Source of the DNA: Blastocystis sp. Blastoise
Lineage: Eukaryota; Protista; Bigyra: Opalinata
Direction of reading: 5' to 3'
DNA length: 64,000 bases
Assembly (NCBI GenBank): GCA_039096225.1
Contig: JBBPEB010000006.1
Span: 1,316,665-1,380,664, forward strand
Of the stretch, positions 18,531-45,576 are shown one piece after another. The notes beneath the pieces were generated by a model. The model ran no database searches, had not been told where the DNA came from, and was given only the letters and a program-made list of their open reading frames with translations. The translations under genes and the position numbers were made by a program. The number at the start of each line of letters is the position of its first letter. Position 1 is the first letter of the stretch.

Positions 18531-19426
18531 ATTCTTCCGTTCTTCGAACTGCAGAAGGGGGTATGCAAACCCCGCATAGAGTCTGCGCGACGCGCGCAGC
18601 CATAAGCGGGGAAGTCATCCCCCCTTTTTGTTCTCGACGGAAGAATTAATAACATTTCTGAAGTAAAATAACCATGGGAGTGTAGGGTAGTGTGTGTGTG
18701 TATTTATTTTTTCCCATGTTTATTTATTTTTAATTTATTTGTGTTCCGATTCCAACGTGAAACGTAAAGTGATCAAGGAGAAACTCATAGTAATCATAAA
18801 AGAAATAAAATACACAGTCCAACCCTCCCCTTTACAGGGAATATTCATGGAAAATGACTCCATCGTTGGTAAAGTGAGTAAAATAATCACGGGAACACAG
18901 AAAGAAATACGAAAAGAAGCACAGAATGTGCTAAATAAACACACACCCCGACCCTCCCTTTATATAGAGAAAAGATGAAATGGATGGTTCTATCTAAAAA
19001 GAAATAATAAAAATAATCACGGGAATATATAAAAATAAAAATGTATGTATAGTGATCAATAAATAATATAAAAAGTAATGATAATCATAAAAAAATTTAT
19101 ATAAAAAGAGTAAAGTGATCAAGGTATGTATTTATAGTGGGTGAAAGAAAAGCTGGTGGTGGTGTGGTCTTGTAAAAAGATGTACCCACCACCACGATTA
19201 TAACGAGAGACTTTTGGAAACAAGGGTGACCGTTATGGAAATAGGATGCGTCATCGTGAATTGTCCAATCAAATTGCTTAAAAATGTAAAAATGAGGGAT
19301 TTTGGAACACAAAAACACAATTATTATGGGGAAACTGGGGAAACTAATTATGTTCCAGTGGTTTTAGGTGGCGGGATGTATATCAATTTTCTAGAATATT
19401 CTAGAACATTCTCGAAACTTCTAGAA
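18531..19426 (+). repeat. Left terminal inverted repeat (896 bp)
   Basis: Reverse complement of 45539-46435. I noticed only about 3 substitutions and one 1-bp indel. ORFs 18694..18978 and 45988..46272 mirror each other. Confidence 0.97.
19389..19426. promoter_or_regulatory. Heat-shock-element-like array (8 alternating nGAAn/nTTCn units)
   Basis: TTCtaGAAtaTTCtaGAAcaTTCtcGAAacTTCtaGAA. Confidence 0.6.
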
Positions 19427-19473
19427 TAATAAATTGTATTATGCATTTTTTTTCTATTTTTATACTATTTATT

Positions 19474-19641
19474 ATGGATTCTCCAAAGCAATTTGCTCCA
19501 GATTATAAAGAAGGTAATTGGAAACCTTATGGAAATTTTGAAGTTGATGAATTAAGTGATAGTGATTCTGAAATGGATACTATTCAAACTGAAAGTGAGG
19601 ATGATTACGAAGATTATATCAAGAATTTTATTGATTTTTAA
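19474..19641 (+). CDS. Small acidic viral protein (55 aa, MDSPKQF...)
   Basis: ATG just downstream of the HSE array, virus-like codon usage, D/E-rich, followed by the 3' motif variant TTGTTTAGTT. Confidence 0.55.
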   Translation: MDSPKQFAPDYKEGNWKPYGNFEVDELSDSDSEMDTIQTESEDDYEDYIKNFIDF

Positions 19642-19715
19642 ATTAATTTTTATAAATAACAAAACAAATTGTTTAGTTTTTTAAAATAATAATAAATAAA
19701 ATAAATTAAAATTAA

Positions 19716-21206
19716 CTAATGTTTTCTACGTTTATTTCTTAATTTTTTATTTTTTGAAATACGTCTTTTTCTACGTAATCCATTACCTTCTTCGAGATCA
19801 TAAAATACCTCACCATCATCTTCATCAAATGATTGAAATTCATCATCTTCTTTTTTATTTCGTTTATTATTATTTTCAAGAGTTACATTTTCTACTGGAT
19901 TAGGAATCGGGGCTACAGGTGTATTATTTGGAGTGAATTTATTCGTTATTGCTTGAGACATTGGAACAATATCAGGTAAAGGAGCAGTAGGATCATTCAT
20001 AAGAGGAATTAAATTTGGAGGATTTGAATCTTCTATATTAATATTATGAATATTTTCTAGAGTTAGAGTATCAGGGGTAGATGAAGGAGTTGATATAACA
20101 TTATTATTTGTTTCTATTGGATTTTCTGTTTGTGGTATTTCTTCTTCTGGATTTTTACCATACCACCAATCAGAAAAACTATTAAATACGTTCTTTGTAC
20201 CACTAACAATAGAGTTTGCAACTTTTTTAACACCATTAACAATTGGTGTTCCTACATTTGTTGCAGTATTAACAACTTTATTAACAAATGTAGGGTTTTC
20301 TGCATAGGGAATATAATTTTTATGAAATGTTTTTGCTTGATCTTCTAAAGATTTAGTTTTGTTAAGTCTTTGTTCTTTAGTATCATTACCTGACATATGA
20401 GCAAATCTAAAATAGTTATCAGCTAATAATTTATTCTTTTTCTTAGCTTCATTATCATCAGTTAATTTCCAATTATCATATAAATTATTTCTATCACTTA
20501 CAAGTTTTCCTTTAATATCATTGAATCCTTCTTTTGGATCAACATTAATATCTCTCCACCAATTCTTGAGATCTTTGAATTTATTTGCACCATAATCAAC
20601 AGCATTACTTATTCCATGAGTGATATTATTAATACCTCCAGTTAATTTATCAGACACATTGTATACATCACTTACAGTGTGATAAATATTAGAAAATAAA
20701 TTACCACCTCTAGAATATAAATAACCATCACGATCTCTTTTAGTAAAATCAATTGCACTATCAATTGTACGAGGATTTAATAATCTTGAATATTTAGCAT
20801 AATCAGACATATGATTTTGTTTCATATAAGGTAAGACATAATCATGAGCATAAATGAGTTTTCTTGTAAAGTTCTTCGGAATTCTACCATCAGGTAATAA
20901 CCCAGATCCTTCATCTATTGGTTCACTTTCTTCTGATTCTTCTAAGGAACTTTGTATAATATCTTGTCTGGTTTCTGATAAATAGGAGAAAAATGGATTG
21001 GATGTTGCTCTATTGACCATATTACTTTCAATTTTCTTAACAGCATATAATGAATTTGGAGCAATAGAATAATTAATTGGATAACGTTCTTCTCCATCAG
21101 GAATAGATCCTGGAACAATATAATTTCGATATTCATGACCAGTAGCACGATGATTTACGCCTACTAATCCTTTATTTGAAACATTTAAACGAGCACTTTG
21201 TATCAT
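19716..21206 (-). CDS. Viral hypothetical protein, 496 aa; putative core/structural protein with GxG sites and a basic C-terminal tail
   Basis: Long intact ORF with EGSGL, SRGGN and EGNGL followed by RRKRRISKNKKLRNKRRKH; 3' motif at 19658-19667. Confidence 0.8.
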   Translation of the reverse strand: MIQSARLNVSNKGLVGVNHRATGHEYRNYIVPGSIPDGEERYPINYSIAPNSLYAVKKIESNMVNRATSNPFFSYLSETRQDIIQSSLEESEESEPIDEGSGLLPDGRIPKNFTRKLIYAHDYVLPYMKQNHMSDYAKYSRLLNPRTIDSAIDFTKRDRDGYLYSRGGNLFSNIYHTVSDVYNVSDKLTGGINNITHGISNAVDYGANKFKDLKNWWRDINVDPKEGFNDIKGKLVSDRNNLYDNWKLTDDNEAKKKNKLLADNYFRFAHMSGNDTKEQRLNKTKSLEDQAKTFHKNYIPYAENPTFVNKVVNTATNVGTPIVNGVKKVANSIVSGTKNVFNSFSDWWYGKNPEEEIPQTENPIETNNNVISTPSSTPDTLTLENIHNINIEDSNPPNLIPLMNDPTAPLPDIVPMSQAITNKFTPNNTPVAPIPNPVENVTLENNNKRNKKEDDEFQSFDEDDGEVFYDLEEGNGLRRKRRISKNKKLRNKRRKH

Positions 21207-21435
21207 TTTAAATTAATAAAACTAGGGTCACGCCGCAGGTCCAGTGCCTAACGGCCCCGGACCGCGGCTGCATGAAAATATGTGTGTTTAGTTTTTTAGT
21301 ATCCTTCATTATTTTTATATATTGTTTATTGTTTATTGTTTATTATTTATTGTTAATTATTTATTTATTATTAATTATTTATTATTTATTTATTATTATT
21401 TATTATTATTTATTATTAATCATTTATTATTTATT

Positions 21436-21503
21436 TCTTATACTCTACATGGAGAGTTATAATCAATAAATGATTGTAATCAGGTTCAATTCCTGATATA
21501 AGA
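21436..21503 (+). ncRNA. tRNA-like cloverleaf, copy 3 (inside the Helitron)
   Basis: Stems are TCTTATA/TATAAGA, CTCT-acatgg-AGAG, TTATAATCA/TGATTGTAA and TCAGG-TTCAATT-CCTGA. Confidence 0.6.
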
Positions 21504-21929
21504 ATCTATTATACTTTTTCAATAATATATAAAAATAAAGAAGAAATTATTTTAAATAAAGAACAACGTTTTGAGTTATATTCATTATAAAAAATTATTT
21601 TCTAAATCAATTTTGACATTATTAATAATTATACAACTGTTTAAAGCTTTTTTTGAGTTTTAAAGTCAATAATTTTAGAAATGAGTAACAATGTGAAGAA
21701 CTTTGAAGTATTTTTAATTCATAAAATTCATTTAAATAAGCATAATAAAATAATTTAAACTCATTTTAATAATTTTTAAAAGAATTTTGAAGTTTTAATC
21801 ATAACAAAGTCAACATTCATTTTCACTTTGACAACTAAAACATTATTTAAAAAGTTAATATTTTTATATTCGTCTCAAATAATGATTTTAATTATAAATA
21901 ACTCAAAATAGTAACTTTTAAAGAGACTT

Positions 21930-23310
21930 TACACATTCAAGATCCACTGTATCAAAATAATTTCTTTCAGTCTTTTGATATAGTATAGAGTTTATCATAC
22001 TATTTATTAAATAAAAGTAAATGTTTTGAATCTCTGTCTTAAAGACCCTTTTTGACACATTATGAAAAGTTGACACACTTAAACTCATTTTTAAATGCTA
22101 ATATTTACACACTTTACTTAATAATACCATAGCTACACATTGGTCATCACTTTAAAACATTTTATAAACCTTTTGCATTTGCTCATTTACTTCGACCAAA
22201 ATATTTTCGTCCCTTCTTTTGACATAATATAGAGTGTGTGGTCTAGTTATATGAAAGTGAGGGGGAATTTTGAATCTCGTCCTCTAAGTCAATCATTTTC
22301 ACATTTTTTAAAATTAAGACCCTTAGAGTTGATTTTTTACGTTAATTTTTCTACAGTGTTCCAAAAACACGATTTTGGATAAACTGAAGTAAAAATGTTT
22401 TTTCAATAACTCTCACAACCCTTTACACATCCACTCTCTAAAAATAGTTTTTGCTATATTTTTGATATGTTGTAGAGTGTCTCTTAGTGTATACTGAACA
22501 ATATCTCGTTTCTTAAAACTCTCATTTTATGACTCTCTTTGAACATATTTTTACTAATTGAAAGACTTAAACACATTTTTAAAAGCTAATATTTACATAG
22601 TAGACTTTATATGACTCTATAAGCACATTAGTCAACACTTTAGACTTTTTAAAGACACTTTACCATTTGCTCATACACTTTGATCAAAATATTTTCGTCC
22701 CTTCTTTTAACATAATATAGATCATACAGTCTAGTTTAATGAATAAACACTCTTATTTTGAATCTCGTCCTCTAAGTCACTCATTTTTACATTTTTTTAA
22801 ATTTAAGGCCCTTAGAGTTGATTTTTTGACTCAATTGTTCTACAGTGCACGAAATTCACGATTTTAAATAAACTGAAGTAAAAATAAATTTTAAATAATA
22901 GTCACAACACCTCACACATCCACTCTCTAAAAATTATTTTCTTTGAACTTTTGATATGTTGTAGAGCTACTACAGCTGTACACTAATTAATATCTCTAAA
23001 TTTTTTATTCATAGTCTAAGACTATGTTTTACACATTCTTTTGAATTTGACAACCTTAAACTATTTATTTAAAGCTCTTATTCATAAAATAGACTTAATA
23101 CATGATTCTATACACATATGCAAACCCTTTTACTTTTTAAGACACATTTTGTCATTTGGTCATACACTTTGACCATCATAATTTTGACTCTCCTTTTAAC
23201 ATAGAATAGAGTTGTAAGTCTAGTTTATTAAATAAAAGTCATTATATTGAATCTTATCCTCTAAGACCACTTAATTCACATTTTTCAAAATTGTCACTTT
23301 TAAACTCGTT
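21930..23310. repeat. Degenerate tandem repeat with ~244-bp monomer and ~488-bp dimer
   Basis: ATCCACT..TTTTGATAT..TAGAG recurs at ~21942, 22429 and 22918; TTGAyCA..TTTTCGTCCCTTCTTTT-like segments recur at ~22191, 22680 and 23168. Confidence 0.7.
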
Positions 23311-24004
23311 ATTTTAAGACTTTGTTTTAACTATAGTAGTTTGAGGACCTATCAATTACAATACTGTAATATTAGTCGATTATAAGAAGATCGAAGAAAA
23401 TATCGATCACTCAAAAATCGTCCTCAGGAGCTGAAAATCGCTACACCTAGGTTTTTGGACCTCCTGAATCAGAATATGATGTCAAAATAAGAATCTAAAT
23501 TTGACCGTTAAGGCCTCACGTGTTCAATATGAAAAAGTATTAAAAAATAGATAAATATAAAGAATAAACACGGATAACGTATATTGTGGGATTGAGAAAA
23601 AATCAAGTTTACCCCATGTTTATTTTCCAATTGTCTGGTCAACAATTTTTATCGGGGTCACCCCAAAGAGCCAATCAAAAACGACTCAAAAATCATGTTT
23701 TCTGTTCTTTTATTAATATCTTTTTAATTATAAATAACATCGCTTAACCAAATATACGGTGCACAACTACACGTTATATCCTATTGAACTGTGTTTCAAC
23801 CAAAAGTTAACTTCCCGTAAGTTTAGAGGAGTTGTGGGTACAAACTTGAGTATATAGTAGCCAATCAAATGAATTTTCCAAAAACTGACCAATGGGAATT
23901 TTTTTGCCTATTCTCATATATATAGTAATGATAATTATGAATTTTAAAACAAAACAAAAAAAAGAAATTATTTATATTATATAGTTAGTATATTAATAGT
24001 ATCA

Positions 24005-24802
24005 TTAATTATTATGAGTATTTTTTAAATAATCGTCAATATTCATTGATTTATCATTAGCTTCAACAAATAATGTTTTATTTTTGTAGAATATATTATT
24101 ATTTCCAAAAACATCACTATTGGTGCATTCAATAGGTCCATCAGTATACCATTTGAATTTATACTTTCCATAAGTGGCGTTATAATATGTTTTTTCGTCG
24201 GTATCTTGTTGTAAATTCATATCGAATTCAAATTTCTTTGGAGTATTATCATCTTCTTTATCTGGTTTCTTTTCAGTTTCAGGTTTAGTTTCAGGTTCTT
24301 TAGCTGGTTTCTTTTCGTGTTCAGGTTTCTTTTCAGGTTCTGGTTTGGGTTGTTCTTCAGTGAAATTAGAATTCATGGATTCTGGTTGTGGTTTCACTGT
24401 ATAGTCTTCATTAGGATTTCTTACAGTATGAATAAGTTTTTCATATTGATAGTTATTAGGATTACTAGCATCATACCATATCTTACTTGTAGTAGGAATA
24501 CCATAATTCGTTTGCCATTGAGATAACATGGATGTATATCTATTGGTATCACCATTAGCTTTAGCTGAATTCATAGTAGCTATAAACATATCTTCAGGTG
24601 ATTGACCATGATTTCTTAATGCTTGAACTGCCATTGAGCTATACATAGATCCTTGGGCATTAGGATCATGTGCTAATGGTTGTACAGGTTGTTCATCTTG
24701 ACAAATATATGAATTGGGTAACCATGGATCCCAAGATTGTTTTTTCTGATTTCTTGATAAAATATCATAGAGAGTTACACTATCTCCTAAATTACTTTGC
24801 AT
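24005..24802 (-). CDS. Viral hypothetical protein, 265 aa, with a KPE-rich linker
   Basis: Intact ORF containing KPEPEKKPEHEKKPAKEPETKPETEKKP; 3' motif at ~23947-23957. Confidence 0.8.
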   Translation of the reverse strand: MQSNLGDSVTLYDILSRNQKKQSWDPWLPNSYICQDEQPVQPLAHDPNAQGSMYSSMAVQALRNHGQSPEDMFIATMNSAKANGDTNRYTSMLSQWQTNYGIPTTSKIWYDASNPNNYQYEKLIHTVRNPNEDYTVKPQPESMNSNFTEEQPKPEPEKKPEHEKKPAKEPETKPETEKKPDKEDDNTPKKFEFDMNLQQDTDEKTYYNATYGKYKFKWYTDGPIECTNSDVFGNNNIFYKNKTLFVEANDKSMNIDDYLKNTHNN

Positions 24803-24878
24803 TATTTATTGTATTAATTTAAAAATAATTATATAACAAAACAAATAATTAATTATGAAATAATAAAAGTTAAAATAA

Positions 24879-25916
24879 TTAATTTAAATGAAATTTTTTT
24901 AAGAAGAATTGAACAAGATTAATAATTAAATTAGTAGTAGTATCAAAGGATGTAGAGTTGACAAGAGCACCACCACAACGTTCAGCATTCTCTTTTGTAA
25001 CACCACTTCCACTAGGATTTTTAAAATAGTTATCAGCAGTTTCTTTACGTTTCTTATCATCATCAGTAGTAATCATATTATAAGCGAAATCAATAGGGAT
25101 ACCAAGAGAAGGATAATAGTATTTTAATGCATTCACTACAATAGGAACAATCGTTTTAATAGTTTTAATAGCAGTATTCGCAATAATAGAATGCTTTTGT
25201 TTTGGATCCATAGGATATTCTTTATCGATAACGACATTAACAATATCACGTACAGACACATGCTCATCATTTTTAGGTAATCGTTCTTTAATATCTTGTA
25301 ATTTCTTCTTATTAGACTTTACATTACTAGAACGAATAGCCTTCTTAGCAATAATTTTTATTTGAGGAGTTACAAATTTACTTGTTTTCTTTTCTTTTTC
25401 TCGGTGACTCCCATGTTCTTTACGATGTTTCTGATGCCTTCTATGTATACCTTGACCAAATATATCATCATAATTTTCATCTTCAAGATTTGCATTATTA
25501 TAATCTTTATCATCATCAGCCATCATTTTTCTTGTTATTCTCTTTGGTTGATAAGTATCATCATCGTTATATAATTCATCATCTCTATTAGCATCTTCAA
25601 TATGTTCTTCAAATTGTCTTTTCTTTTCTTCTTTTGCTTTTTCTTGACGTTTTTGTTCTTTACGTTTCTGATAATAATTATATCCAGCAAATGCTCCTAA
25701 TGTACCTAAAATAGGTAATGCAGTATAGACACCATTTTTAAAATCAGCCCAATCAGCATCTTTAGCTTGTTGTCTAACAATTTCTTCAAAACCAGTTCCT
25801 CCATATCTTACATAACGTTTATGATAAAGATCACGTCTATTTGATTTTGGTGGTGATCCTCCAAATAATCGTGGATCACAATTTTGTTTTAAATATCTTT
25901 TTGTAATTGAACTCAT
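24879..25916 (-). CDS. Viral hypothetical protein, 345 aa; putative single-pass membrane/core protein with GG/GxG sites
   Basis: Hydrophobic GVYTALPILGTLGAFAGY followed by a basic coiled coil; also LFGGS, RYGGT, FGQGI, SGSGV and RCGGA. Confidence 0.8.
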   Translation of the reverse strand: MSSITKRYLKQNCDPRLFGGSPPKSNRRDLYHKRYVRYGGTGFEEIVRQQAKDADWADFKNGVYTALPILGTLGAFAGYNYYQKRKEQKRQEKAKEEKKRQFEEHIEDANRDDELYNDDDTYQPKRITRKMMADDDKDYNNANLEDENYDDIFGQGIHRRHQKHRKEHGSHREKEKKTSKFVTPQIKIIAKKAIRSSNVKSNKKKLQDIKERLPKNDEHVSVRDIVNVVIDKEYPMDPKQKHSIIANTAIKTIKTIVPIVVNALKYYYPSLGIPIDFAYNMITTDDDKKRKETADNYFKNPSGSGVTKENAERCGGALVNSTSFDTTTNLIINLVQFFLKKFHLN

Positions 25917-35644: not shown

Positions 35645-38600
35645 TTAATTTGGTATAGCATATAAAGTATTATCTATTAAAATTCGTTTTGTTGATGACG
35701 TATTATGATATTGATCTTCACTATAAACAATTTCTTCTTTTTTAGATAAACAATTGGATAAACAGAATAAATCTGTATCTACACATTCATTATAAGTATT
35801 ATCAATCATTAAACCACAAATACCAATAGCATTCCCTCCCTTATAAAAATTTGAAGTATGTTTTCTATGAATATTCACAATATCTATAGAATTAAATGTA
35901 TCTTTACTACTTAAACAACCAAATAAAGCATTTGTAAATTTATCTAAATCTTTCTTAATCGTAAATTGATTATTATTATTCACTTTCTTATAACTATTAA
36001 AAATATCTTCAATAGTAACTACATTCAAATAATAAGGATCTATAGTAATATGGTTATCAACAAAAGATTTCAAATCATATCCTTCTGTACTACGATCAAA
36101 GAATCGTTTCTTACATTCACTTATATGATATTCATTATCTAATTCATGCATATCTAATTGCATACTAGAATAGAAATAATTACTTACTAGATAACTAAAG
36201 ATAATTGAACGATTCTGATAGAATTTATCGGATAGAGTATAATCCATTTCATAATGATTTGGTTTCAATCTCTTTTCTACTGTCTGTTTACGTTTCGGTA
36301 AATTATGATCTACATAATCTTCATATAAATTAGCATTACCAGGAGGGAAATAACGACAACATGAAGGTAAGAAACACACTCTTCTTTCAATAGGACCAGC
36401 ATTCACAGCTGTAGGTTGGATATTACTTGTCATAAATAAAGTACCCGTGAAATGAACTTTTGTAAATATATTACTGAATAATTTACGAGCACTAGCACCT
36501 TCTTTCTTTTCTGCTATTTCTTTAAAGACTTTAGAAGAGAATGGATTGAATGTTTTCTTTCTACCAGTAACATCTTCTTCTATTAATTCATTCATATAAT
36601 ACATAGTCTTATTAGACATATCTACAATCTTAGGAGCTATAGATGTTTCTTCTAAATTATCTGGATTTACTATAATACATTGATTACTACCTACAATACG
36701 AGAAATTAAATCAGTTGTTATTGTTTTACCATTACTACCTGTACTACCATATAATATATAAGAAACTGTTTTCTGAGTATTGACATAGAAAGCAGTGGTT
36801 AGGATACGTAACATAATACTTTCATATTTCTTATCGAATTCACAATATCTTGCAATATGTTGTTCAAATAATTGGATAATATCTTTCTGTTCATTATTAA
36901 TATTCCAACTTACATTAAATTCAGTATCAATTAATAAATCTTCAAACACCATATCTTCTTTATGATATGGTTGGATATAATATTGTCTAGGATCTTCTTC
37001 TGTTGATTCTTTTGGATATAAATAACCAAGTTGTGTATAGATAACACGTTCTTTATGAACCATATACGTATCTAAATATTCTTTATAAGATTTACCATAA
37101 GTCTTCAAATAACGATTCAACCATTCTTTATAATGATATTCATTAGTAACAGAAGCAGACATTATTTTATCAACTATTTTTTGATGTTGTTCATTCTCTT
37201 TGGAATATAATCTTGATAGTTTGAATTTCTCTACAATCGATTTCATAAATGTAGTTATTTTGGTTTCAAAGAAATTAATATCATAATTATTCTTACAACG
37301 TCTTAAGATATTATATTCATCAAATGTATATAAGATAAAATTATCTTTATCTAATATAATAGATACAATTTCATTAAATTCTAATAATTGAAATAACATA
37401 ACTAATGTTTGTGAATCTACAAGATTAAAGGATTGAATACATTCTAAAATAGACATAAATATGAAATCATTATCATCATCTTTATTAAATAATTTATTAT
37501 CCATTAATATCTTCAAAATATAATTATTCGATAAATGAGTAGGATCAACTTGTATATGATTCCATGTAGATTCAATTACATCATCACTTCGATCATGACC
37601 ATAACGTAATGAATAATTTTTAAATAATTCTAATCCTCTTGTTGTATTACAAATCTGTTTTGCTGCACAACATAATTTATACCAAGTATTATGGGATTCA
37701 AAATAATTCATATCTTCAATAGAACCAATCAATAATAAATATCGTTCTAATAAAGCTTCTTTAGATGCTGTAGTATCCAATATAGTATCTGTAGAAATCA
37801 ACATAGGAATATCTTTAATATCTTGTATAGAACATAATATAGTACGTGAACAATTATTTAATCTTGCATAATAACGTTTATAACGTGAATATTGTTTTAA
37901 TTTAGAAAAGATAATAGGATTAATAATATCACTTATAAGATCATCTTCATTCTTATAATTCAATAATGTTTTGAAATAATAATGTTCATCGATTTTGCCT
38001 TCTATTTTCTTCCATGATTTATTGGTATATTCTTCATATAATTTATAAGTAGATGGGGAATTATCTTTACTACAACCAAGAAACATACAACCATTATTCT
38101 TTCTGGGTTTACCAATAACATTATAATCAATGAATTCTTTTATATCTAAATTATTCATTTTAAATAAATCAACCAATTTGGTATTCAGAATCATACTATT
38201 ATATAAGAAAAATAAATAATCACCATTTACAAACCAATTTGTATATATATGAATTCCCCATGAATAATGTATTTCATTATGAACTGTCTTCTTATTCACT
38301 TCTTTCTTTGTATACACAAGCGAAATAAATTCTTGATTATAATAATGAATACAATGATTACACATTTCTTCTATAAATTCATGAATAAAAGAATCTGTTA
38401 GAAAAGAAAAATCATTTGATATTTGGTGATAATCTAAATCAAACCATAATCTTCTATAATTAGTTGATGTATTACAAGGAGTACAATCAATATAATGTAA
38501 TAATTCTTTTTGATTTTGGTAATTAGTAAATAGACTTTTATAAAATGGTAATGGATTTGGTATAATAATTTCACTATGATTATCTTTTGAGTTATCATGA

Positions 38601-38647
38601 TTAAAGGAACCAAAAGTATAAACAAAATGAATTTGTGAATTTTCCAT
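35645..38647 (-). CDS. D5-like primase-helicase (AEP primase + PriCT-2 + SF3 helicase), 1000 aa
   Basis: AEP motifs LWFDLDY and GIHIY; PriCT-2-like TWYKLCCA...FKNYS; Walker A YGSTGSNGKT, Walker B YYMNE, motif C FMTSN, and ERR finger. Confidence 0.9.
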   Translation of the reverse strand: MENSQIHFVYTFGSFNHDNSKDNHSEIIIPNPLPFYKSLFTNYQNQKELLHYIDCTPCNTSTNYRRLWFDLDYHQISNDFSFLTDSFIHEFIEEMCNHCIHYYNQEFISLVYTKKEVNKKTVHNEIHYSWGIHIYTNWFVNGDYLFFLYNSMILNTKLVDLFKMNNLDIKEFIDYNVIGKPRKNNGCMFLGCSKDNSPSTYKLYEEYTNKSWKKIEGKIDEHYYFKTLLNYKNEDDLISDIINPIIFSKLKQYSRYKRYYARLNNCSRTILCSIQDIKDIPMLISTDTILDTTASKEALLERYLLLIGSIEDMNYFESHNTWYKLCCAAKQICNTTRGLELFKNYSLRYGHDRSDDVIESTWNHIQVDPTHLSNNYILKILMDNKLFNKDDDNDFIFMSILECIQSFNLVDSQTLVMLFQLLEFNEIVSIILDKDNFILYTFDEYNILRRCKNNYDINFFETKITTFMKSIVEKFKLSRLYSKENEQHQKIVDKIMSASVTNEYHYKEWLNRYLKTYGKSYKEYLDTYMVHKERVIYTQLGYLYPKESTEEDPRQYYIQPYHKEDMVFEDLLIDTEFNVSWNINNEQKDIIQLFEQHIARYCEFDKKYESIMLRILTTAFYVNTQKTVSYILYGSTGSNGKTITTDLISRIVGSNQCIIVNPDNLEETSIAPKIVDMSNKTMYYMNELIEEDVTGRKKTFNPFSSKVFKEIAEKKEGASARKLFSNIFTKVHFTGTLFMTSNIQPTAVNAGPIERRVCFLPSCCRYFPPGNANLYEDYVDHNLPKRKQTVEKRLKPNHYEMDYTLSDKFYQNRSIIFSYLVSNYFYSSMQLDMHELDNEYHISECKKRFFDRSTEGYDLKSFVDNHITIDPYYLNVVTIEDIFNSYKKVNNNNQFTIKKDLDKFTNALFGCLSSKDTFNSIDIVNIHRKHTSNFYKGGNAIGICGLMIDNTYNECVDTDLFCLSNCLSKKEEIVYSEDQYHNTSSTKRILIDNTLYAIPN

Positions 38648-38733
38648 GATTATTTGACTTATAAATAATGAAAATAATTATAATACAACATTTAAAACAA
38701 ATAATATATTAAAGATTCTAGAAGTCAGTTTTA

Positions 38734-38863
38734 GAAGCTTCTAGAACCTTCTAGAACATTCAGGAACATTCTAGAACATTCTATAATAGTAAATATTACT
38801 TTATATTTTTAAATGTTCTAGAACCTTCGAGAACCTTCGAGAACCTTCTAGAACCTTCTAGAA
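38734..38863. promoter_or_regulatory. Two HSE-like arrays (10 + 10 units) upstream of the primase-helicase
   Basis: 38734-38781 and 38816-38863 show perfect 5-bp-phased alternation of GAA and TTC. Confidence 0.65.
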
Positions 38864-38973
38864 CATCCTTTTTATACTTTAGTGTTTTAAATGTATATAC
38901 AATAAACAAAACAATTTTCAATGATTTTTTACAAGTTTATAAGTAAAACTAGAAAAATAAACAAGAAAATAAA

Positions 38974-39597
38974 TTAAATTTCAATTGGTTCTTGACTATT
39001 AATATATGTACATGAATGAGGCCATCCATTTTTATCATATAAAATACCATCCCAGAAATACATTTGTTTTGAAGGATCTCTTTTAATCTTGTTAATACTC
39101 TTAGCATGAACAACTTCATAAGAATAAACTTTACCTTTTTCATCATAAAGAAATCCATCTTCCATATGGAATTTCATAATATCAAAATCATCATCTTTAG
39201 AATTCGAATGTTCTTTAGAATCTTCAGAACATAAAATAGTAGTTCTATCACTTTCTAAAAGATCTTCAGTATTGATAATATCTTGAATATCTTGTTCTTC
39301 ATTAAGTTGTTGAGTATAAATATCAGCAGCGAATTCTTCATAATCTTCAAGACCTTTAATAACCGCGTTTATACGTTTTAAAGCTGATCTATAGTTTTCG
39401 ACTTCGAAAGAAGCAAGACGTTCTTTAGATTTTGCAATACCCAATAGATTCTTTTCTCTATTCAATTGAGACTGATGTAAATCAATATCACGAAGAACAT
39501 TCTTATGAACTTCAACAGCCTTCTTAGAATTCTTTAGAAGTTCCATACGAACAGTTTGAAGACATTTACGGGAATCAGCAGAAAGATTAAATTGCAT
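38974..39597 (-). CDS. Viral hypothetical coiled-coil protein (~207 aa from ATG 39597)
   Basis: Intact ORF, 4-unit HSE at 39709-39726 upstream, 3' motif at 38905-38914. Confidence 0.75.
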   Translation of the reverse strand: MQFNLSADSRKCLQTVRMELLKNSKKAVEVHKNVLRDIDLHQSQLNREKNLLGIAKSKERLASFEVENYRSALKRINAVIKGLEDYEEFAADIYTQQLNEEQDIQDIINTEDLLESDRTTILCSEDSKEHSNSKDDDFDIMKFHMEDGFLYDEKGKVYSYEVVHAKSINKIKRDPSKQMYFWDGILYDKNGWPHSCTYINSQEPIEI

Positions 39598-39995
39598 TAT
39601 AATCGCGAATATCGTTACAGAGAGAAAATTTGTATTTATCAAAATGAAATAAATAATACATTTAAATGGAATATTAAATATTCTAGGAGACAGTCTAGAA
39701 TCTCTATGGAATGTTCTAGAAGGTTCATTTGATTGGCTAATTTTGTCGACTTAGCATTTTTTATTTGTGTTTCAATGACGAGTATAGTTGGCATCTGTAA
39801 TCTGATTGGATACAAAAATTAGTAAAACACAATTAGACGATGACGACGATGTGTCATACGAAATAAGTTATTTTATTGGCTTATTTTCCAGCTGGAAGCA
39901 ATAGGCTTTTGTTAGCAACTGAAATGAAGAACTGTACACTAAAAATAGTATATTTAATATATTGTATAAAAATACTTTTGAAGGTTTAAATAATC

Positions 39996-40523
39996 ATGGA
40001 AATTCCTGATAGTCTTTCTGCCAGTTTATCCCCTTTCGGTCAAGCCATGATATCCCCCTTGTTGAATCCATTTGAAAATAGTGTTTCTGCAAATCCTATG
40101 GCTTTACCCAATGATAATGATTTCTGTTTTAATTCGCGTGACGAAATCATATTTGAAGATCCACCTCAAGAAATTCATCCAATCAATGATGTTTACGTAT
40201 CTAAAAATCCAGATAGATATCATTCGGTTAACAATCAACCAATACAATTTCAAGATCAAGTAAATACAAATCCTGATAAGCAAGCATTATTATTTACAAA
40301 TGAGGAGTTAACAAATATATCCAGTCAATTCGAATCTTTATTTCAAACTATGGAAACGGCTGATAATATATTAAATAGTATTTATTGTACTGTTGATCAT
40401 TTAAAAACAAAGATTGAAAGTCAGAAACAAGATTTGAAACAGATTCATGATGATTCTAAAGAAATTGTTTCATTATTATCCGAATATTCTATTCCTTCTA
40501 TGTCTGAAATATTTGATCATTAA
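39996..40523 (+). CDS. Viral hypothetical protein, 175 aa (disordered N-terminus, C-terminal coiled coil)
   Basis: Intact ORF; 3' motif at 40547-40556. Confidence 0.75.
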   Translation: MEIPDSLSASLSPFGQAMISPLLNPFENSVSANPMALPNDNDFCFNSRDEIIFEDPPQEIHPINDVYVSKNPDRYHSVNNQPIQFQDQVNTNPDKQALLFTNEELTNISSQFESLFQTMETADNILNSIYCTVDHLKTKIESQKQDLKQIHDDSKEIVSLLSEYSIPSMSEIFDH

Positions 40524-40722
40524 TTATTTTTATTTAATTAATTATTTTGTTTTGTTTATTTTTTTTTTAAATTAATTACACAAAGTTTAAATGGAGAATA
40601 GAATAGTTTCAAATAGAATTCTTGAATGGTCTAATGGATCTATTAAAGAAATATGTAACTACAGTATCATGGTTCGATTCCGTTAAAATGTTTCCATTAG
40701 ATTATTCAAGTGTTCTTTTTTT

Positions 40723-40770
40723 TTCTAGAACCTTCTCGAACATTCTAGAACCTTCTCGAACCTTCTGGAA
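40723..40770. promoter_or_regulatory. HSE-like array (10 units) upstream of the SSB-like gene
   Basis: TTCtaGAAccTTCtcGAAcaTTCtaGAAccTTCtcGAAccTTCtgGAA. Confidence 0.65.
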
Positions 40771-40846
40771 AATTGATTCATTTGAAAAGAATATCGTAAA
40801 ATATTAGTATTAAAATACTTATATTTTTACTAAATACTTAACTAAA

Positions 40847-41440
40847 ATGTCTTCAACTGAATTTAAGAAACCTACTATTCTTGATACTTCTAACTTTAAT
40901 TTACAATGGGATGACACCAAAGAAAATGCTGTTCTTTTAAATAATAATCATCGTGTATGTATTTCTACTGATGCTACACCATGTTTATTTGGTTATATTG
41001 TTACACGTGATAAATGGACTTTAATAACGATTGAAGATGATAATCAAGTATTCTTAACTGCTTATAAAGAACTTTATCGTAAATTATGTGAATTATGTCC
41101 TGATGGTGATATTGTTAATTTTGTACGTATGGATAATGGTAAATATAAGATTACAATTAAAGTACCTATTAATGCATCGAAGAATGTTACTATTGATATT
41201 ACTGATAAAAGAGATAAGAAGATTAATATCGGTAAAGATCCTAAGTTAACTTACGAAGAAATACGTGAAAAGTATATTCCACCAAATACGTTATGTAAAG
41301 TATTATTTACAATACATGGTATTCATCGTTATAATAACAAGTATTATATTGGTTTATATGCACGTTCTATTAAAGTATTCGATAAATCTACGAAGAATAC
41401 TAACAGCAATGATACTATTATTGATTTAACTAAATTATAA
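40847..41440 (+). CDS. Probable OB-fold single-stranded DNA-binding protein (T7 gp2.5-like / NCLDV type)
   Basis: Size and the C-terminal pattern IPPNTLCKVLFTIHGIHRYNNKYYIGLYARSIKV fit this family; it lies near the helicase. Confidence 0.6.
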   Translation: MSSTEFKKPTILDTSNFNLQWDDTKENAVLLNNNHRVCISTDATPCLFGYIVTRDKWTLITIEDDNQVFLTAYKELYRKLCELCPDGDIVNFVRMDNGKYKITIKVPINASKNVTIDITDKRDKKINIGKDPKLTYEEIREKYIPPNTLCKVLFTIHGIHRYNNKYYIGLYARSIKVFDKSTKNTNSNDTIIDLTKL

Positions 41441-41515
41441 ATTTTTAATGTTAAATTTATTTTTTATTAATATATTTGTTTTGTTTATAAATAATTTTAT
41501 AATTGAAATAAAAAA

Positions 41516-43144
41516 ATGCAAAGTTGTATCTTAGGAATGCCAAGTCCTGGTACTTTTGGTATGAATTTAATTTCAACTGGAAAAGAATATAGGCGATATA
41601 ATACACAACCATTACATAAAATGGATCAATATAATCCAATATTTCATGAAATAGGTCCAAATTCATCTATGCCTGTGTCTACTTTAGAAAGTAAAGAAAT
41701 ACATGATGGTAAAGAAGATGATTATGTAGATCGTTCTAAAACATTTGGTAAAGATGCTGTTCCACAAGGAAATGGTGCTTTAATTCGTGCTAGAGCAGCA
41801 GGTAAAGGTGTAATGAAAGCAGCTGGTCCAGAAGAAGATAAAATAGATGGTGAAGATCGTCAATATAAAGTATTAAATCCATGTAAACCAAGACGTAAAT
41901 CTGGTAGAGGAATTATTCCAAATAAATCAGAAATCAATAAATTAGAGAATAATCAAGGTTCTGGTATTGGTGATGCAATTAAAAATAAAGTAAAAGATAT
42001 GTATCAACGAAATGTATTAGATATAAGAGATGCTATTGTAGATAAAAAAGCTAATAGAAAAGCTCGTGATGCATTAGCTATTTTAACTCAATATGTTGGT
42101 GATGGTCATCATGATCTTGATGATGAATTCAAAAGATTCTATGAACATAAAATAAAACGTGGTGGAAAGATTCCTATATCTGTTGCTTCAGCAATTATGA
42201 ATGCAATTAAAAATAAGAAAATGATTAAGAATCCAAAATTAAGAAGAATGTTAAGACCCTCTATTATACCAAAATATATAGATTTAGATTCAGCTCAAAG
42301 TGGTGATGGTATATTAAGAGTAAAAAGAGGTGGTGGATTCTGGAGCGGATTAATGGATTATGCACCAGCTCTATTAGGTGTAGTTGATAAAGGTATGGAT
42401 TCTTTTGCTAAAGGTAGAAAAGCTTATTATGATACACATTTGGCACAACAATCAAGTGAATTAAATGATATGGAATTTGAAATGGAAAAATTAAAACGTC
42501 AACAAGCATTAAATGAAATGAAAAAGCAAATAGGTTCAGGAAATACAATAAATAAAATGTTTGAAGGATATTATGATGTAGCTGATGAAATGCAAGATGC
42601 TCTTGATGAAGATGATAGACTACATCCACAACCCGTTGTTCAACCTCCACCACCTCCACAACAACAAGTTGATCGACCTCCTCAATCTCAACCTCCTCAA
42701 CCTTATAAACCCATGTCTCGTGATGAACAAAGTTATTATTATAAGATTTATGGTTTCCCTCAAAATGATAAAGAAAAAGTCGATAGAAAATGGAAAGAAG
42801 ATGAAAGGGATAAACGAATAGCTGCAAGAAGAGCTAAACGTAGAGGTTATGGTGGTCGAGTTAAATTAAGTAAAGCAGAATTCTTAGAACGAATGAGAAG
42901 AGGAAAAGAAGCTAAAAAGAAAAGAGGTGGTGATTTGAATCCATTAGTATCATTTTATACAGATTTTATAATACCTGCAGGAGTGGCACGAAAAAAACGT
43001 AAAATCCAAGAGGCTGATTTAAAACAATTACAAATTATAAAACAGAAAAGAGATAATAATGAAACATTAAATGCAGGTGACGAATTGTTTTGGAAAAAAA
43101 AGAAATATATGTTATCAAAAAACTCAGGGGAGGGGATCTGGTAA
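41516..43144 (+). CDS. Basic core polyprotein candidate (542 aa) with ~11 GxG/GG putative protease sites
   Basis: K/R-rich; contains QGNGA, AGKGV, SGRGI, QGSGI, KRGGK, SGDGI, KRGGGF, IGSGN, GYGGR, KRGGD and SGEGI; overlaps the protease ORF. Confidence 0.75.
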   Translation: MQSCILGMPSPGTFGMNLISTGKEYRRYNTQPLHKMDQYNPIFHEIGPNSSMPVSTLESKEIHDGKEDDYVDRSKTFGKDAVPQGNGALIRARAAGKGVMKAAGPEEDKIDGEDRQYKVLNPCKPRRKSGRGIIPNKSEINKLENNQGSGIGDAIKNKVKDMYQRNVLDIRDAIVDKKANRKARDALAILTQYVGDGHHDLDDEFKRFYEHKIKRGGKIPISVASAIMNAIKNKKMIKNPKLRRMLRPSIIPKYIDLDSAQSGDGILRVKRGGGFWSGLMDYAPALLGVVDKGMDSFAKGRKAYYDTHLAQQSSELNDMEFEMEKLKRQQALNEMKKQIGSGNTINKMFEGYYDVADEMQDALDEDDRLHPQPVVQPPPPPQQQVDRPPQSQPPQPYKPMSRDEQSYYYKIYGFPQNDKEKVDRKWKEDERDKRIAARRAKRRGYGGRVKLSKAEFLERMRRGKEAKKKRGGDLNPLVSFYTDFIIPAGVARKKRKIQEADLKQLQIIKQKRDNNETLNAGDELFWKKKKYMLSKNSGEGIW

Positions 43145-43710
43145 AGAGTAAAGATGAAAAACTTATTCAAAATTCAATGAATTGTGATAATCCTATTATA
43201 TCTGATAAAACTCGTCATGTTACTCCTAGATCCCCTGATAATTTCAAACAAACTCTATCTCAATATTGTAATATACCAAATTCTTTAATATCTCAATTAT
43301 ATAATTATGCTTATTTAAATAAACCTACCTCTTCTGTTGCTTGTGATCGTGCTGAAAATGTTATGAAACAATTAAATAAAACGAATTCTCAATCTTATAA
43401 TTATTATAATAGTTATGATGATTTTGAACAAAATATAGATCAAGATCAAACTAAATTTAATATGATCTTTCATGAAAGTCCTAGTGATCCTTATAATGGT
43501 CATTTTGAAGCTGTTATTTATAATGGTAATAAAAATATAGAACACTATTCATCATTAGGAAATAAACCTACTTTTTCAAAATCATTTATTCAAAATCATA
43601 ATATTCAATATAATCCTATTCAACACCAAAAAACTACAAGTAATGCAAATGGTTGCTTTTATTATTCTTTACTTTATTTACTTTCTAATGGAAATCTTAT
43701 GCCTTGTTAA
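43090..43710 (+). CDS. Adenain-like (clan CE) maturation cysteine protease, in the -1 frame relative to the upstream ORF (first in-frame ATG at 43177)
   Basis: GHFEAVIY (catalytic H), IEHYSSLG (cf. YFDSxG), and QHQKTTSNANGCFYYSLLYL (oxyanion Q, catalytic C). Confidence 0.8.
   Translation: MEKKEIYVIKKLRGGDLVKSKDEKLIQNSMNCDNPIISDKTRHVTPRSPDNFKQTLSQYCNIPNSLISQLYNYAYLNKPTSSVACDRAENVMKQLNKTNSQSYNYYNSYDDFEQNIDQDQTKFNMIFHESPSDPYNGHFEAVIYNGNKNIEHYSSLGNKPTFSKSFIQNHNIQYNPIQHQKTTSNANGCFYYSLLYLLSNGNLMPC
43117..43238 (+). other. Putative -1 programmed ribosomal frameshift signal
   Basis: In-frame A AAA AAC (43117-43123), a 7-nt spacer, and stems 43131-43141/43226-43236 and 43146-43151/43220-43225. Confidence 0.7.
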
Positions 43711-43796
43711 AACATTCTAGAATATTCTAGAATCTTTAATTTATTATATTAATATTTTGTATAATTAATTTGTTTTGTTTATTATTTAATACTATA

Positions 43797-43952
43797 ATGA
43801 CAAAGAAACGATTTGGCAATTACTACTTAGATCGTAGTGCAGAAACTTTAGAGAATGTAAATGAAATACTGTCAGTTATTGAAATTGTTCTTATTATTAT
43901 ATATATTTTACTTTACTTTTATATGTCCAAGAAACGTTCTAGAACATTCTAG
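43797..43952 (+). CDS. Small single-pass membrane protein (51 aa)
   Basis: ATG at 43797; ILSVIEIVLIIIYILLYFYM followed by SKKR; HSE upstream and 3' motif downstream. Confidence 0.5.
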   Translation: MTKKRFGNYYLDRSAETLENVNEILSVIEIVLIIIYILLYFYMSKKRSRTF

Positions 43953-44054
43953 AACATTCATTTTGAACTGGCTCTATTTGTAGAATCTTTAATTTATTAT
44001 ATTAGTGTTTTGTATAATTAATTTGTTTTGTTTAATCATTGGTTAATTTAAATA

Positions 44055-44429
44055 ATGAACAAGAAATATCTTAGTTATTCTTATTTTTGTCGTGTGATGA
44101 AGAATCTAAAAGAAGAAGGAATTAAATCTAAAAAGAATGAAATAGCAAATCTATTAGAACAATTTTTAAATAACAATAACAGCAAAAATCTTAGTGATTT
44201 GCAATTGAGTTACTGTAGAAACATGTTACTTTATATAGATGATCCTGTGATTCATCAACGTCTTGAAATGCTATTGGATAAACAATATATGAAGAATGAG
44301 AATCAATATCAAGATGATAAGAATCTTATTCAACCCAATAATATGTTTATGCCAACTATGAAAAGTAATCAACAACAAAATCAATATCAAAATAATAATA
44401 ATAATCTATCTTTCTTACCTTTCAATTAA
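44055..44429 (+). CDS. Viral hypothetical protein, 124 aa (N/Q-rich tail)
   Basis: Intact ORF, HSE at 43937-43959, 3' motif variant at 44453-44462. Confidence 0.65.
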   Translation: MNKKYLSYSYFCRVMKNLKEEGIKSKKNEIANLLEQFLNNNNSKNLSDLQLSYCRNMLLYIDDPVIHQRLEMLLDKQYMKNENQYQDDKNLIQPNNMFMPTMKSNQQQNQYQNNNNNLSFLPFN

Positions 44430-44504
44430 TTTTTATATCCTTTTATTACTAGTTGTTTAGTTATATTCAAAATTTAAAAACAAAACAAACATAAAAACAT
44501 AAAA

Positions 44505-45440
44505 TTATTCAATTAATTTTTTAAATAAATTATTATTTTCTAAAGATACATAAGAATTAATATGTGTATAATCATTATGACATAAAGCAGAAGCAGAATT
44601 TTCTATATCTTGGAATGTATTGGTTGTAGTTGTAGCATATAATTTTCTTAATGCATTAATGGTTAATTTTGGATGGATTTGTTTTAAATGTTTATTCACA
44701 AACCAATCAAATGCTTTAGTAGTAAATCCAGTTCTAACAGAAGATTCAAATATAAATTTACGATTTGGATTTCTTTTTAAGAGTAATTCTAGATCTTCAA
44801 TCAATTCTTTTGGTGCATCTAATTGAATTGTAGAGTATTTACCAGCAGTTTTATAATCATTTAATAGAATAGAACCAGTATGTTTCTCTTTATCATAAAC
44901 AATATAATTCTTATGAATAGCTGGATCAATAGTATCTTCTGGAGTTAGAATGAATAATTGAGCATAATCAGCACGAGCAGGAGGAAGATAGGAGTAAAAA
45001 TCTAATATTAATCGTAATGGGTTATAATTTTCTAATTTATCGTGATATTCATGTAAATATGGAGTCGTAATACCATCTTTAATAAGATCTTGAATCAAAG
45101 TACGTTTCTTATTATCCAGATATTTTTCATACATAGAATTGATAATCACATAAAATTCACACCATTTATTTAAAATACCTTCTTTATTTAATGAAGAAAC
45201 ATTACGTATAATAAATAAAATCAATTCACATAACGATTTCATTGGACTAATTTTGATTTTACGTTCATTTACCATATAATCCATGAATGAATAAGGATTC
45301 TTTAAGAATTCTGAGAACTTTTTAAATGGTAATGGGAAAATATATAAATTGAAATAATTGGTTAAACGTTTTTTCCAAATATCAGAATAATTTGAATTCT
45401 GTATAACCAAAAGATACTTGTCATAATTCGTATTTTTCAT
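44505..45440 (-). CDS. Tyrosine recombinase 2 (~311 aa from ATG 45440)
   Basis: LPPARADY (R), LNDYKTAGKY (K), FIF, INALRKLYAT (R) and LCHNDYTHINSY (H...Y), the pattern of PLV/virophage/NCLDV-type tyrosine recombinases. Confidence 0.85.
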   Translation of the reverse strand: MKNTNYDKYLLVIQNSNYSDIWKKRLTNYFNLYIFPLPFKKFSEFLKNPYSFMDYMVNERKIKISPMKSLCELILFIIRNVSSLNKEGILNKWCEFYVIINSMYEKYLDNKKRTLIQDLIKDGITTPYLHEYHDKLENYNPLRLILDFYSYLPPARADYAQLFILTPEDTIDPAIHKNYIVYDKEKHTGSILLNDYKTAGKYSTIQLDAPKELIEDLELLLKRNPNRKFIFESSVRTGFTTKAFDWFVNKHLKQIHPKLTINALRKLYATTTTNTFQDIENSASALCHNDYTHINSYVSLENNNLFKKLIE

Positions 45441-45528
45441 TGTTTTTCTCAAGTAGAATCTTTAAAACTTCTATTTTGAAAAGAATAATACATAAGAAAA
45501 TCAAAATAAAATATCTAAGATTCTCATG

Positions 45529-45576
45529 TTCTCGAATGTTCTAGAAGTTTCGAGAATGTTCTAGAATATTCTAGAA
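45529..45576. promoter_or_regulatory. HSE-like array (10 units) upstream of tyrosine recombinase 2
   Basis: Alternating TTC/GAA at 5-bp phase, ~90 nt upstream of ATG 45440. Confidence 0.65.

Follow-up and report, generated by a model that had tools for sequence, protein, structure and literature searches.

Phased GAA/TTC arrays ahead of replication and recombinase genes in a Blastocystis provirus as candidate sites for a host heat shock factor switch

Introduction

SOS induction of lambdoid prophages couples host stress to the excision and replication genes, and it does so by removing a phage repressor. In the DIRS-1 element of Dictyostelium, the inverted terminal repeats reportedly contain a heat-shock promoter, as Zuker et al. 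are said to have found in 1984; we know of no internal arrays in DIRS-1. In ONSEN, an LTR-copia element of Arabidopsis, the terminal-repeat sequence nTTCnnGAAn is bound by the host heat shock factor (HSF) HSFA2, and extrachromosomal copies arise under heat (PMC3907296). Host HSFs also bind promoters of KSHV (ORF50), EBV and HIV-1 and favour the exit from latency (PMC12047821, PMC12366260). For endogenous Polinton-like viruses of protists, the triggers named in the literature cited here are giant viruses. The term "heat shock" is absent from the Tetraselmis study (10.1101/2025.10.09.676808) and "heat" from PMC10120064, and a literature search joining Polinton-like viruses with heat shock elements (HSEs) found no paper.

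An original prediction, made from a 64-kb stretch of Blastocystis DNA (the window, to which all coordinates refer), held that perfect HSE arrays allow host HSF to induce a provirus. Here we describe the provirus and its arrays and weigh this reading against its alternatives. No description of the element was found in the accessible parts of the literature on endogenous Polinton-like viruses of Blastocystis; relatives may be listed in bioRxiv supplements.

Results

The provirus, of Polinton-like or MELD type, spans 18531..46435 and measures 27.9 kb with a host insertion and about 25.2 kb without it. It is bounded by terminal inverted repeats at 18531..19426 (plus strand) and 45539..46435 (minus strand), which differ by 3 mismatches and one gap over about 896 nt (0.9 kb), and its ORFs are intron-less. 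A 2-nt AT target-site duplication is possible, as compared at one copy only. The insertion (21222..23931, minus strand, 2710 nt) is not viral but Helitron-like: its TC...hairpin-CTAG ends lie between A and T, in line with the Helitron end rule, and it matches the host flank at 49389-50321 at 66-81%. A double-jelly-roll capsid, a packaging ATPase, terminal inverted repeats and a size within 15-30 kb characterize Polinton-like viruses (PMC10120064), and all are present here; of the required combination of primase-helicase or pPolB with a tyrosine recombinase (YR) or rve integrase, the element has the primase-helicase and the YR. No protein-primed PolB and no retroviral-type integrase was matched among 19 ORFs, which places the element outside the Polintons/Mavericks in the strict sense. 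No RNA polymerase was recognisable in the virus, and Rfam gave no match in 16000-51000.

A scan of the whole window for alternating GAA and TTC units in 5-nt phase (at least 3 units) returned eight arrays and no further ones, with 8, 10, 10, 4, 10, 4, 5 and 10 units, and thereby reproduced all coordinates and unit counts of the original prediction. The inverted repeats contain the array at 19389-19426 a second time, at 45539-45576; since the two are one sequence, only seven of the eight arrays are distinct. The occurrence of the arrays is not due to chance: across 100 local Markov resamplings the mean number of arrays was 1.47 at 3 units and 0.02 at 4, with none longer, and the pattern TTCTAGAANNTTCTAGAANNTTC was matched 6 times against 0.00 expected. 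The scan found no arrays in the 36 kb of repeat-rich host flank within the window, and a search for broken arrays (6 units with at least 15 of 18 core matches) found none elsewhere in the element.

By a published definition, an HSE consists of at least three inverted nGAAn pentamers in phase (PMC12366260), and each array contains 4-10 of them. Among the spacers of the four 10-unit arrays, 16 of 72 positions deviated from the commonest letter of their array, compared with 0 of 96 interior core positions, in arrays that had been selected by perfect cores. The cores are thus invariant and the spacers variable, as originally described, but the spacers are not free: of the 24 TTCnnGAA spacers, 16 are TA (P between about 1e-7 and 4e-10), and A is the first letter of 41 of 53 pentamers. 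Six sites (five distinct), all inside the element, are identical to TTCTAGAAnnTTCTAGAA, the preferred consensus obtained for yeast Hsf1 by ChIP (PMC6340206). Two array regions also have a duplicated downstream block in common.

Although only 13.7% of the element is non-coding, every one of the seven distinct arrays is located within an intergenic gap or at its border and ends 65-168 nt ahead of an ATG; the three convergent gaps of the element hold none. Two 10-unit arrays (38734..38781 and 38816..38863) lie 86 and 168 nt ahead of the ATG of the primase-helicase (35645..38647, minus strand, 1000 aa), which matched PHROG 1156 DNA primase (E 2.4e-9) and whose relatives gave weak PriCT-2 and DUF5906 matches; its profile found no match in the PDB. 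The 10-unit array at 45529..45576, with eight units within the right inverted repeat, lies 88 nt ahead of tyrosine recombinase 2 (44505..45440, minus strand, 311 aa), the profile of which matched integrase 3nkh (E 0.002) and in which R156, K197 and R265 are invariant and H288 near-invariant among 28 relatives. Its 8-unit copy (19389..19426) forms the inner end of the left inverted repeat, 14 nt ahead of an acidic 66-aa ORF (19441..19641, plus strand), an uncertain gene whose exact sequence is absent from the protein collection and which is followed by a variant 3' motif.

The remaining 10-unit array (40723..40770) lies 76 nt ahead of a 197-aa ORF (40847..41440, plus strand), originally called an SSB. 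Its matches in the Atlas (score 0.95) are clusters from giant viruses, some of which carry DUF5871/DUF2738 in 10-18% of their members, and DUF2738 presumably provides the link to SSBs. A literature search tying DUF2738 to SSBs found nothing, and the single-sequence model (pLDDT 37) had no fold match, so that the label stays a lead only. Altogether, four of the seven distinct arrays front the primase-helicase, the possible SSB and recombinase 2, in agreement with the predicted placement before replication and recombinase genes, but the other three front ORFs without assigned function. A 4-unit array (39709..39726), which shares a divergent gap with three CCAAT-like boxes, lies 111 nt ahead of a 207-aa ORF (38974..39597, minus strand; 4 cluster members, no usable Pfam or Atlas match) and 269 nt from a divergent 175-aa ORF (39996..40523, plus strand; 16 cluster members). 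The 175-aa protein has a coiled-coil-like C-terminal part; its candidacy as a lookalike of an HSF-binding coiled coil found no Pfam support and was dropped. Another 4-unit array (43715..43732) lies about 65 nt ahead of a 51-aa ORF with a hydrophobic stretch (43797..43952, plus strand), an uncertain gene absent from the protein collection. The 5-unit array (43937..43959) overlaps the stop of this ORF and lies 95 nt ahead of a 124-aa ORF (44055..44429, plus strand).

The scan of the 64 kb placed no array ahead of the ATPase, the two capsid genes, a 223-aa ORF or recombinase 1, just as had been claimed for the ATPase, MCP, penton and recombinase 1; the penton candidate is the 223-aa ORF, which had no Pfam or PHROG match. 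The packaging-type ATPase (25970..27007, minus strand) matched PHROG 2666 (E 1.2e-10) and, weakly, the FtsK family of Pfam. The predicted structure of the double-jelly-roll major capsid protein (27840..29063, minus strand; pLDDT 72.6) best matched a MELD virus protein (E 4.3e-15) and also the Sputnik, PRD1 and mavirus capsids, and a second capsid paralogue (29239..30711, minus strand, 490 aa) aligned to the capsid profile (hhalign 99.96%, 30% identity). Tyrosine recombinase 1 (33804..35600, plus strand, 598 aa) aligned to the recombinase 2 profile at 94.7% (hhalign) with catalytic motifs in register. A 496-aa ORF without assigned function (19716..21206, minus strand; 15 cluster members) has no array either. 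Contigs of dataset X1 (n=24), whose RNA nature is a guess, cover parts of the array-fronted primase-helicase, 207-aa and 175-aa genes as well as the array-less recombinase 1, 140-aa and 812-aa genes, and allow neither gene ranking nor induction to be derived; datasets X2 and X3 had no contigs on the element.

Near-identical proteins carry the name Blastocystis and correspond to about 20 copies, mostly with full-length genes, whose primase-helicases are 98.5-99.4% identical (15 of 19 compared). These copies point to recent activity. We found 87 capsid relatives, and the family is apparently large and uncultured. No DNA of related viruses turned up in scans of viral contigs (queries: primase-helicase, two relatives, a capsid alignment and ATPase), in metagenome scans with two alignments or in phage-record searches.

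Similar arrays occur elsewhere. In IMG/VR, the TA-type 5-unit pattern was present at 12 loci, among them six CRESS viruses and four giant-virus contigs. The array ends 98-134 nt ahead of the Rep ATG in L052 (twice), L067, L075 and L082, with a TATA box between array and ATG in L052; the exceptions are L073, with the array at the 3' end of Rep, and L078, with the array ahead of the other gene. Judged from these genomes, arrays ahead of Rep occur in several unrelated CRESS viruses. Arrays of 6 units were found at 68 IMG/VR loci, most inside long reading frames; TA filled 8 of 88 TTCnnGAA spacers in IMG/VR arrays, and two CRESS viruses together with one contig of a giant virus account for six of these eight. 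A search of prokaryote genomes (596 Gb) found the same 5-unit pattern 30 times, four times with 8-10 units, and some Prevotella assemblies carry such repeats several times per genome. Since bacteria are free of HSF and the 6-unit loci lie mostly in reading frames, phased GAA/TTC arrays also arise without HSF.

Three tortoise Blastocystis genomes encode 2, 3 and 2 proteins with the HSF-type DNA-binding domain IPR000232, and five human ones encode 2 each (PMC10690189); a host without HSF, which would speak against the original prediction, is therefore unlikely. In 18 of 20 ORFs, TGTTT(T/A)GTT or TGTTTGTT lies in sense 14-77 nt past the stop, and neither occurs in the two divergent gaps; the viral motif closely resembles TGTTTGTT, the motif for polyadenylation in Blastocystis (PMC4159000). 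The sequence TGTTTTGTT, considered as a late promoter, was rejected because convergent gaps carry it behind the stop codons and divergent gaps lack it.

Discussion

Starting from the observed sequence and placement of the arrays, the constraint on their cores and the anatomy of the provirus, we put at roughly 50% the probability that the arrays are promoter sites of early genes through which host HSF acts as a stress switch. Because the arrays lie ahead of replication, recombinase and small genes and not of capsid genes, the virus likely uses host HSF for the former. Within the original prediction, it is the part concerning HSF sites in early promoters that gained support, from the cores, the Hsf1 consensus, the distance to the ATG, the host HSF domains, the 3' signals and the CRESS parallels. 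Under heat or protein-folding stress, host HSF would switch on the primase-helicase, recombinase 2 and several small genes, and this expression would start excision and replication. A 10-unit array could hold three HSF trimers and give a strong cooperative response. Host polymerase II would transcribe the virus, since no viral RNA polymerase is recognisable and the 3' signal is host-like. Genes with an array would be expressed early and those without one (capsid, ATPase and recombinase 1) late, perhaps after activation by a small protein of the early set. Excision would fall to the early recombinase 2 and integration to the late recombinase 1. The early/late split and the recombinase roles are the weakest steps of this proposal. 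Several observations count against an HSF switch: recombinase 1 lacks an array, three of the distinct arrays stand ahead of ORFs without assigned function, and two of the small ORFs behind arrays (66 and 51 codons) are doubtful as genes. The arrays of HSF-free bacteria and the differently placed ones of CRESS loci L073 and L078 also speak against it. We advance only tentatively a bolder version, in which a helper-free temperate virus would have its whole early programme, excision included, wired to host HSF, possibly tuned to body-temperature swings, and several CRESS viruses would have evolved the same trick independently.

HSF might instead bind the arrays as a constitutive or infection-triggered booster, with chromatin silencing keeping latency and another signal waking the virus. 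The CRESS viruses with arrays ahead of Rep fit this reading, having to our knowledge no latent state to switch. Yeast Hsf1 drives about 20 genes basally and its binding is limited by chromatin (PMC6340206), infection activates HSF1 for poxviruses and coronaviruses (PMC12366260), and ONSEN output depends on methylation besides HSF (PMC3907296). We nevertheless consider a mere booster unlikely, as a recombinase and a replicase under the same element suit a switch and, in heat-shocked yeast, perfect elements are the ones with the most dependable binding, 7 of 8 (PMC6340206).

Ranked next, and unlikely as well, is binding by a viral protein, the arrays being iterons, loading sites of the primase-helicase or operators of a viral regulator such as the 207-, 175- or 124-aa protein. 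Small ORFs without annotation could include a DNA-binding protein, one array is present in both terminal repeats, and phage contigs carry similar palindromic arrays of 10-bp period, albeit mostly within long reading frames. Replication iterons cluster at one origin, whereas the seven sites are dispersed ahead of start codons at a narrow distance from the ATG. Tyrosine-recombinase core sites flank the recombination junction, but here about 860 nt separate each end from the nearest array. Moreover, TA spacers are far rarer in the IMG/VR arrays than here, and a viral binder would require convergence on the HSF consensus.

It is improbable that a giant virus serves the element as a helper and that the arrays mimic a promoter of this helper. 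Tetraselmis Polinton-like viruses with a D5 helicase-primase and a tyrosine recombinase are awakened by a giant virus (10.1101/2025.10.09.676808), and the pattern is present once at each of the four loci on giant-virus contigs; host-like 3' signals, however, favour host transcription, and one survey did not connect Blastocystis with gut egoviruses through gene flux (10.1101/2024.03.23.586382). Neutral 10-bp palindromic microsatellites grown by slippage, as the Prevotella repeats and the duplicated downstream block might suggest, are hardly credible given 16 spacer differences against no core difference, the array-free host flank and the placement only ahead of start codons.

If the HSF switch is true, the element would be a eukaryotic counterpart of prophage induction, naming a host-only trigger in an organism that is in culture and carries about 20 nearly intact copies. 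It would offer a route to the virions of an uncultured family, and the motif could locate stress-wired viruses elsewhere, as the CRESS matches suggest.

Hijacking of HSF is already known from ONSEN, DIRS-1 and herpesviruses, and multi-gene arrays in a protist DNA virus would be a variant of it. ONSEN is a retroelement with one promoter for which binding and induction were shown, whereas seven arrays here front separate genes of a capsid-encoding DNA virus known from its sequence. DIRS-1 resembles the element as a tyrosine-recombinase element with a reported heat-shock promoter in inverted terminal repeats, but is a retrotransposon without a capsid. KSHV has a single stretch of three pentamers ahead of its master regulator, in contrast to 4-10 perfect units directly ahead of several genes in this protist virus. 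Endogenous Polinton-like viruses (PMC10120064; Tetraselmis S2x, 10.1101/2025.10.09.676808) have the same 15-30 kb size, terminal inverted repeats, double-jelly-roll capsid, ATPase, primase-helicase and YR; their known trigger is a giant virus, and the present element differs in its two capsid paralogues and two recombinases. The Blastocystis MELD viruses (PMC8502044) come from the same host genus, and the best structural match of the capsid is a MELD virus protein, but the described Blastocystis virus has PolB and a retroviral-type integrase in place of a primase-helicase and tyrosine recombinases. Finally, where SOS induction removes a repressor, a host activator would here act directly on each early promoter.

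Gene content and copy number of the provirus

The element consists of 20 intron-less open reading frames (ORFs) between two inverted repeats of 0.9 kb (18531-19426 and 45539-46435), which differ by three positions and one gap. The predicted structure of the 407-aa protein is a double jelly roll (pLDDT 72.6) whose closest structural match is a MELD virus protein (E 4.3e-15), and it also matches the Sputnik, PRD1 and mavirus capsids. The adjacent 490-aa protein (29239-30711) is a paralogue of this capsid protein. A packaging-type ATPase and a primase-helicase are also encoded, together with two members of one tyrosine recombinase family: the 311-aa recombinase 2, which matches an integrase structure by profile and has R156, K197 and R265 invariant, and H288 nearly so, in an alignment of 28 relatives, and the 598-aa recombinase 1. 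PolB, retroviral integrase and RNA polymerase were not detected among the 19 ORFs scanned.

Near-identical proteins named Blastocystis sp. Blastoise were found across many contigs (19 for the primase-helicase, 21 for recombinase 1). Identities were 98.5-99.4% for the 15 primase-helicase copies compared, 99-100% for recombinase 2 (10/10) and 93.6-100% for the capsid (9/9). Capsid relatives numbered 87 among 2363 candidates, most of them 55-63% identical and on contigs of at most 27.5 kb. Capsids 55-61% identical and primase-helicases 46% identical are encoded on ENA/Logan contigs of 23-27 kb. Judged by these sequence comparisons, the element is a Polinton-like provirus that exists in many copies, was active recently and belongs to a larger family. 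Three capsids under the same organism name (P0170, P0172 and P0173) are only 48-50% identical, a divergence that points to further provirus families in the same genome.

This copy carries a Helitron-like host insertion at 21222-23931 (-), which is 2710 nt long, non-coding and non-viral, starts with TC, ends with CTAG and contains a GC-rich hairpin and a 489-bp repeat. It lies 15 nt upstream of the start of the 496-aa ORF, in a gap that would otherwise measure 88 nt, similar to the neighbouring gaps, and may impair this copy. A short host repeat that contains a tRNA-like T-loop word is dispersed over 11803-11946, 15872-16032 and 46719-46913 and also occurs inside the insertion. Reading frames in the host flank at 58061-60324 (-), interrupted by simple repeats and showing tyrosine-recombinase-like motifs by eye, are possibly another mobile element.

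Arrays and their placement

The heat-shock-element-like arrays are a real feature. Scanning the whole window for GAA and TTC units that alternate in a 5-nt phase recovered eight arrays, at exactly the positions and with the unit counts of the original prediction, and no further array of at least three units; in resampled sequence, four-unit arrays averaged 0.02 and longer ones never arose. All eight are present, but they are not independent: the first and the last are one sequence at the inner ends of the inverted repeats, leaving seven distinct arrays. The sole degenerate phased array in the host flank (63254-63286) has 15 of 18 core matches and no clear gene adjoining.

Two arrays end 86 and 168 nt ahead of the primase-helicase and another 88 nt ahead of recombinase 2. 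The others end 111 nt ahead of a 207-aa ORF (269 nt ahead of the divergent 175-aa ORF), 76 nt ahead of the 197-aa ORF, about 65 nt ahead of a 51-codon ORF and 95 nt ahead of a 124-aa ORF, whereas the left-repeat copy ends 14 nt ahead of a 66-codon ORF. The array ahead of the 197-aa ORF is where it was described; the proposed identity of that ORF as an SSB is only a lead. Non-coding sequence makes up 13.7% of the element, and arrays are absent from all three convergent gaps and, as had been claimed, from the gaps ahead of the capsid, ATPase and recombinase 1 genes. An AT-rich block downstream of the array is common to four arrays. There are CCAAT-like boxes next to the 39709 array and within the repeats. 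Near-duplicate blocks at 43725-43797 and 43978-44055, each downstream of an array, suggest that a promoter was duplicated around the 51-codon ORF.

Similar arrays in other genomes

Among 2.9 million viral contigs, the 8-unit pattern occurred at 4 loci, three of which represent a single invariant satellite, and the 6-unit pattern at 68 loci (30 distinct arrays). The latter lie mostly inside long reading frames, and TA fills 8 of their 88 spacers if the 16-unit satellite is disregarded. Of the 12 loci matching the TA-type 5-unit pattern, six belong to CRESS viruses from about four lineages, with Rep identified by Pfam, four are on giant-virus contigs and two lie elsewhere. Intergenic HSF-consensus arrays in the CRESS loci lie at L052:1484 and 4545, L067:998, L075:4978, L082:3767, L076:254, L078:315 and L073:446. 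Leaving out L076, the array ends 98-134 nt ahead of the Rep ATG in L052 (two genomes), L067, L075 and L082, and in L052 a TATA box lies between them and a TGACGTAA site next to the array; the array-then-Rep order was not seen in L073 and L078.

The same TA-type pattern was found in 30 stretches, four of them with 8-10 units, across 596 Gb of prokaryote genomes, contaminant contigs possibly among them. In Prevotella-group assemblies (L083, L085, L088, L096, L097, L102, L103, L109 and L111), dispersed TCTAGA-rich palindromic repeats mimic heat-shock elements. Because the pattern also occurs in prokaryotes, the motif alone is no proof of HSF binding; the case rests on its density (six matches within the 28 kb of the element), its placement and a host with HSF. 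A host lacking HSF would have refuted the original prediction, but the supplement of PMC10690189 counts two, three and two HSF-domain proteins for the three Blastocystis genomes from tortoises and two for each of the five human ones. Passages of its main text on "virus" and "heat shock" do not describe the element.

Probable HSF binding of the arrays and rival explanations

We put the probability that HSF binds the arrays at about 0.7. HSF trimers would most likely load cooperatively and activate transcription of the primase-helicase, recombinase 2 and the small early genes, while late genes would be switched on via another route. Should HSF bind, a true induction switch, as originally proposed, is somewhat better than an even bet; HSF as a basal or infection-triggered booster of early genes is the less likely role. 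Contigs of the sequencing run X1 cover both array-bearing and array-less genes and give no ranking of them. The stress-switch reading is cheaply testable.

Binding by a viral protein instead of HSF is unlikely. Six sites are identical to TTCTAGAAnnTTCTAGAA, the consensus reported for Hsf1 ChIP peaks in yeast and for an element bound by HSF across eukaryotes; in heat-shocked yeast, Hsf1 was present at 7 of 8 perfect promoter elements (PMC6340206). It is more doubtful still that the arrays are the promoter of a helper virus. TGTTTTGTT or a close variant lies 14-77 nt past the stop in 18 of 20 viral ORFs, in sense downstream of nearly every viral gene (19658-44484), and exact copies of the 9-mer number 16 within the element against two in 36 kb of flanking sequence. 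It appears to be the Blastocystis polyadenylation motif TGTTTGTT lengthened by one base. In human Blastocystis that motif marks polyadenylation sites (PMC4159000), although it is reported as unenriched after host genes of tortoise strains (PMC10690189). We infer that host polymerase II transcribes the viral genes, which makes a host activator plausible. Neutral repeats are the least credible explanation: interior core positions of the four 10-unit arrays never differ from the local majority (0/96), against 16/72 spacer positions, in a comparison of arrays selected by their cores, with no decayed arrays found elsewhere in the element. The predicted invariance of GAA/TTC therefore holds, but the spacers do not vary freely, TA filling 16 of 24 TTCnnGAA spacers; A comes first in 41 of 53 pentamers.

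Comparison with known systems

DIRS-1 is reportedly an HSF-hijacking, heat-shock-linked element. ONSEN is an established case of such hijacking (PMC3907296), and further cases have been reported in KSHV, EBV and HIV-1 (PMC12047821, PMC12366260). Our search, with most subscription papers outside its reach, found no literature joining "Polinton-like" and "heat shock element", and "heat shock" is absent from the available text of two recent preprints on endogenous algal virus reactivation. Polinton-like viruses with a primase-helicase and a tyrosine recombinase have been described (PMC10120064, 10.1101/2025.10.09.676808), and MELD viruses are known from Blastocystis, but with a gene set other than that of this element (PMC8502044). 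HSF hijacking itself is thus known. The novelty lies in the arrangement: a protist provirus holds many of these elements, long and perfect, with one at each predicted early promoter.
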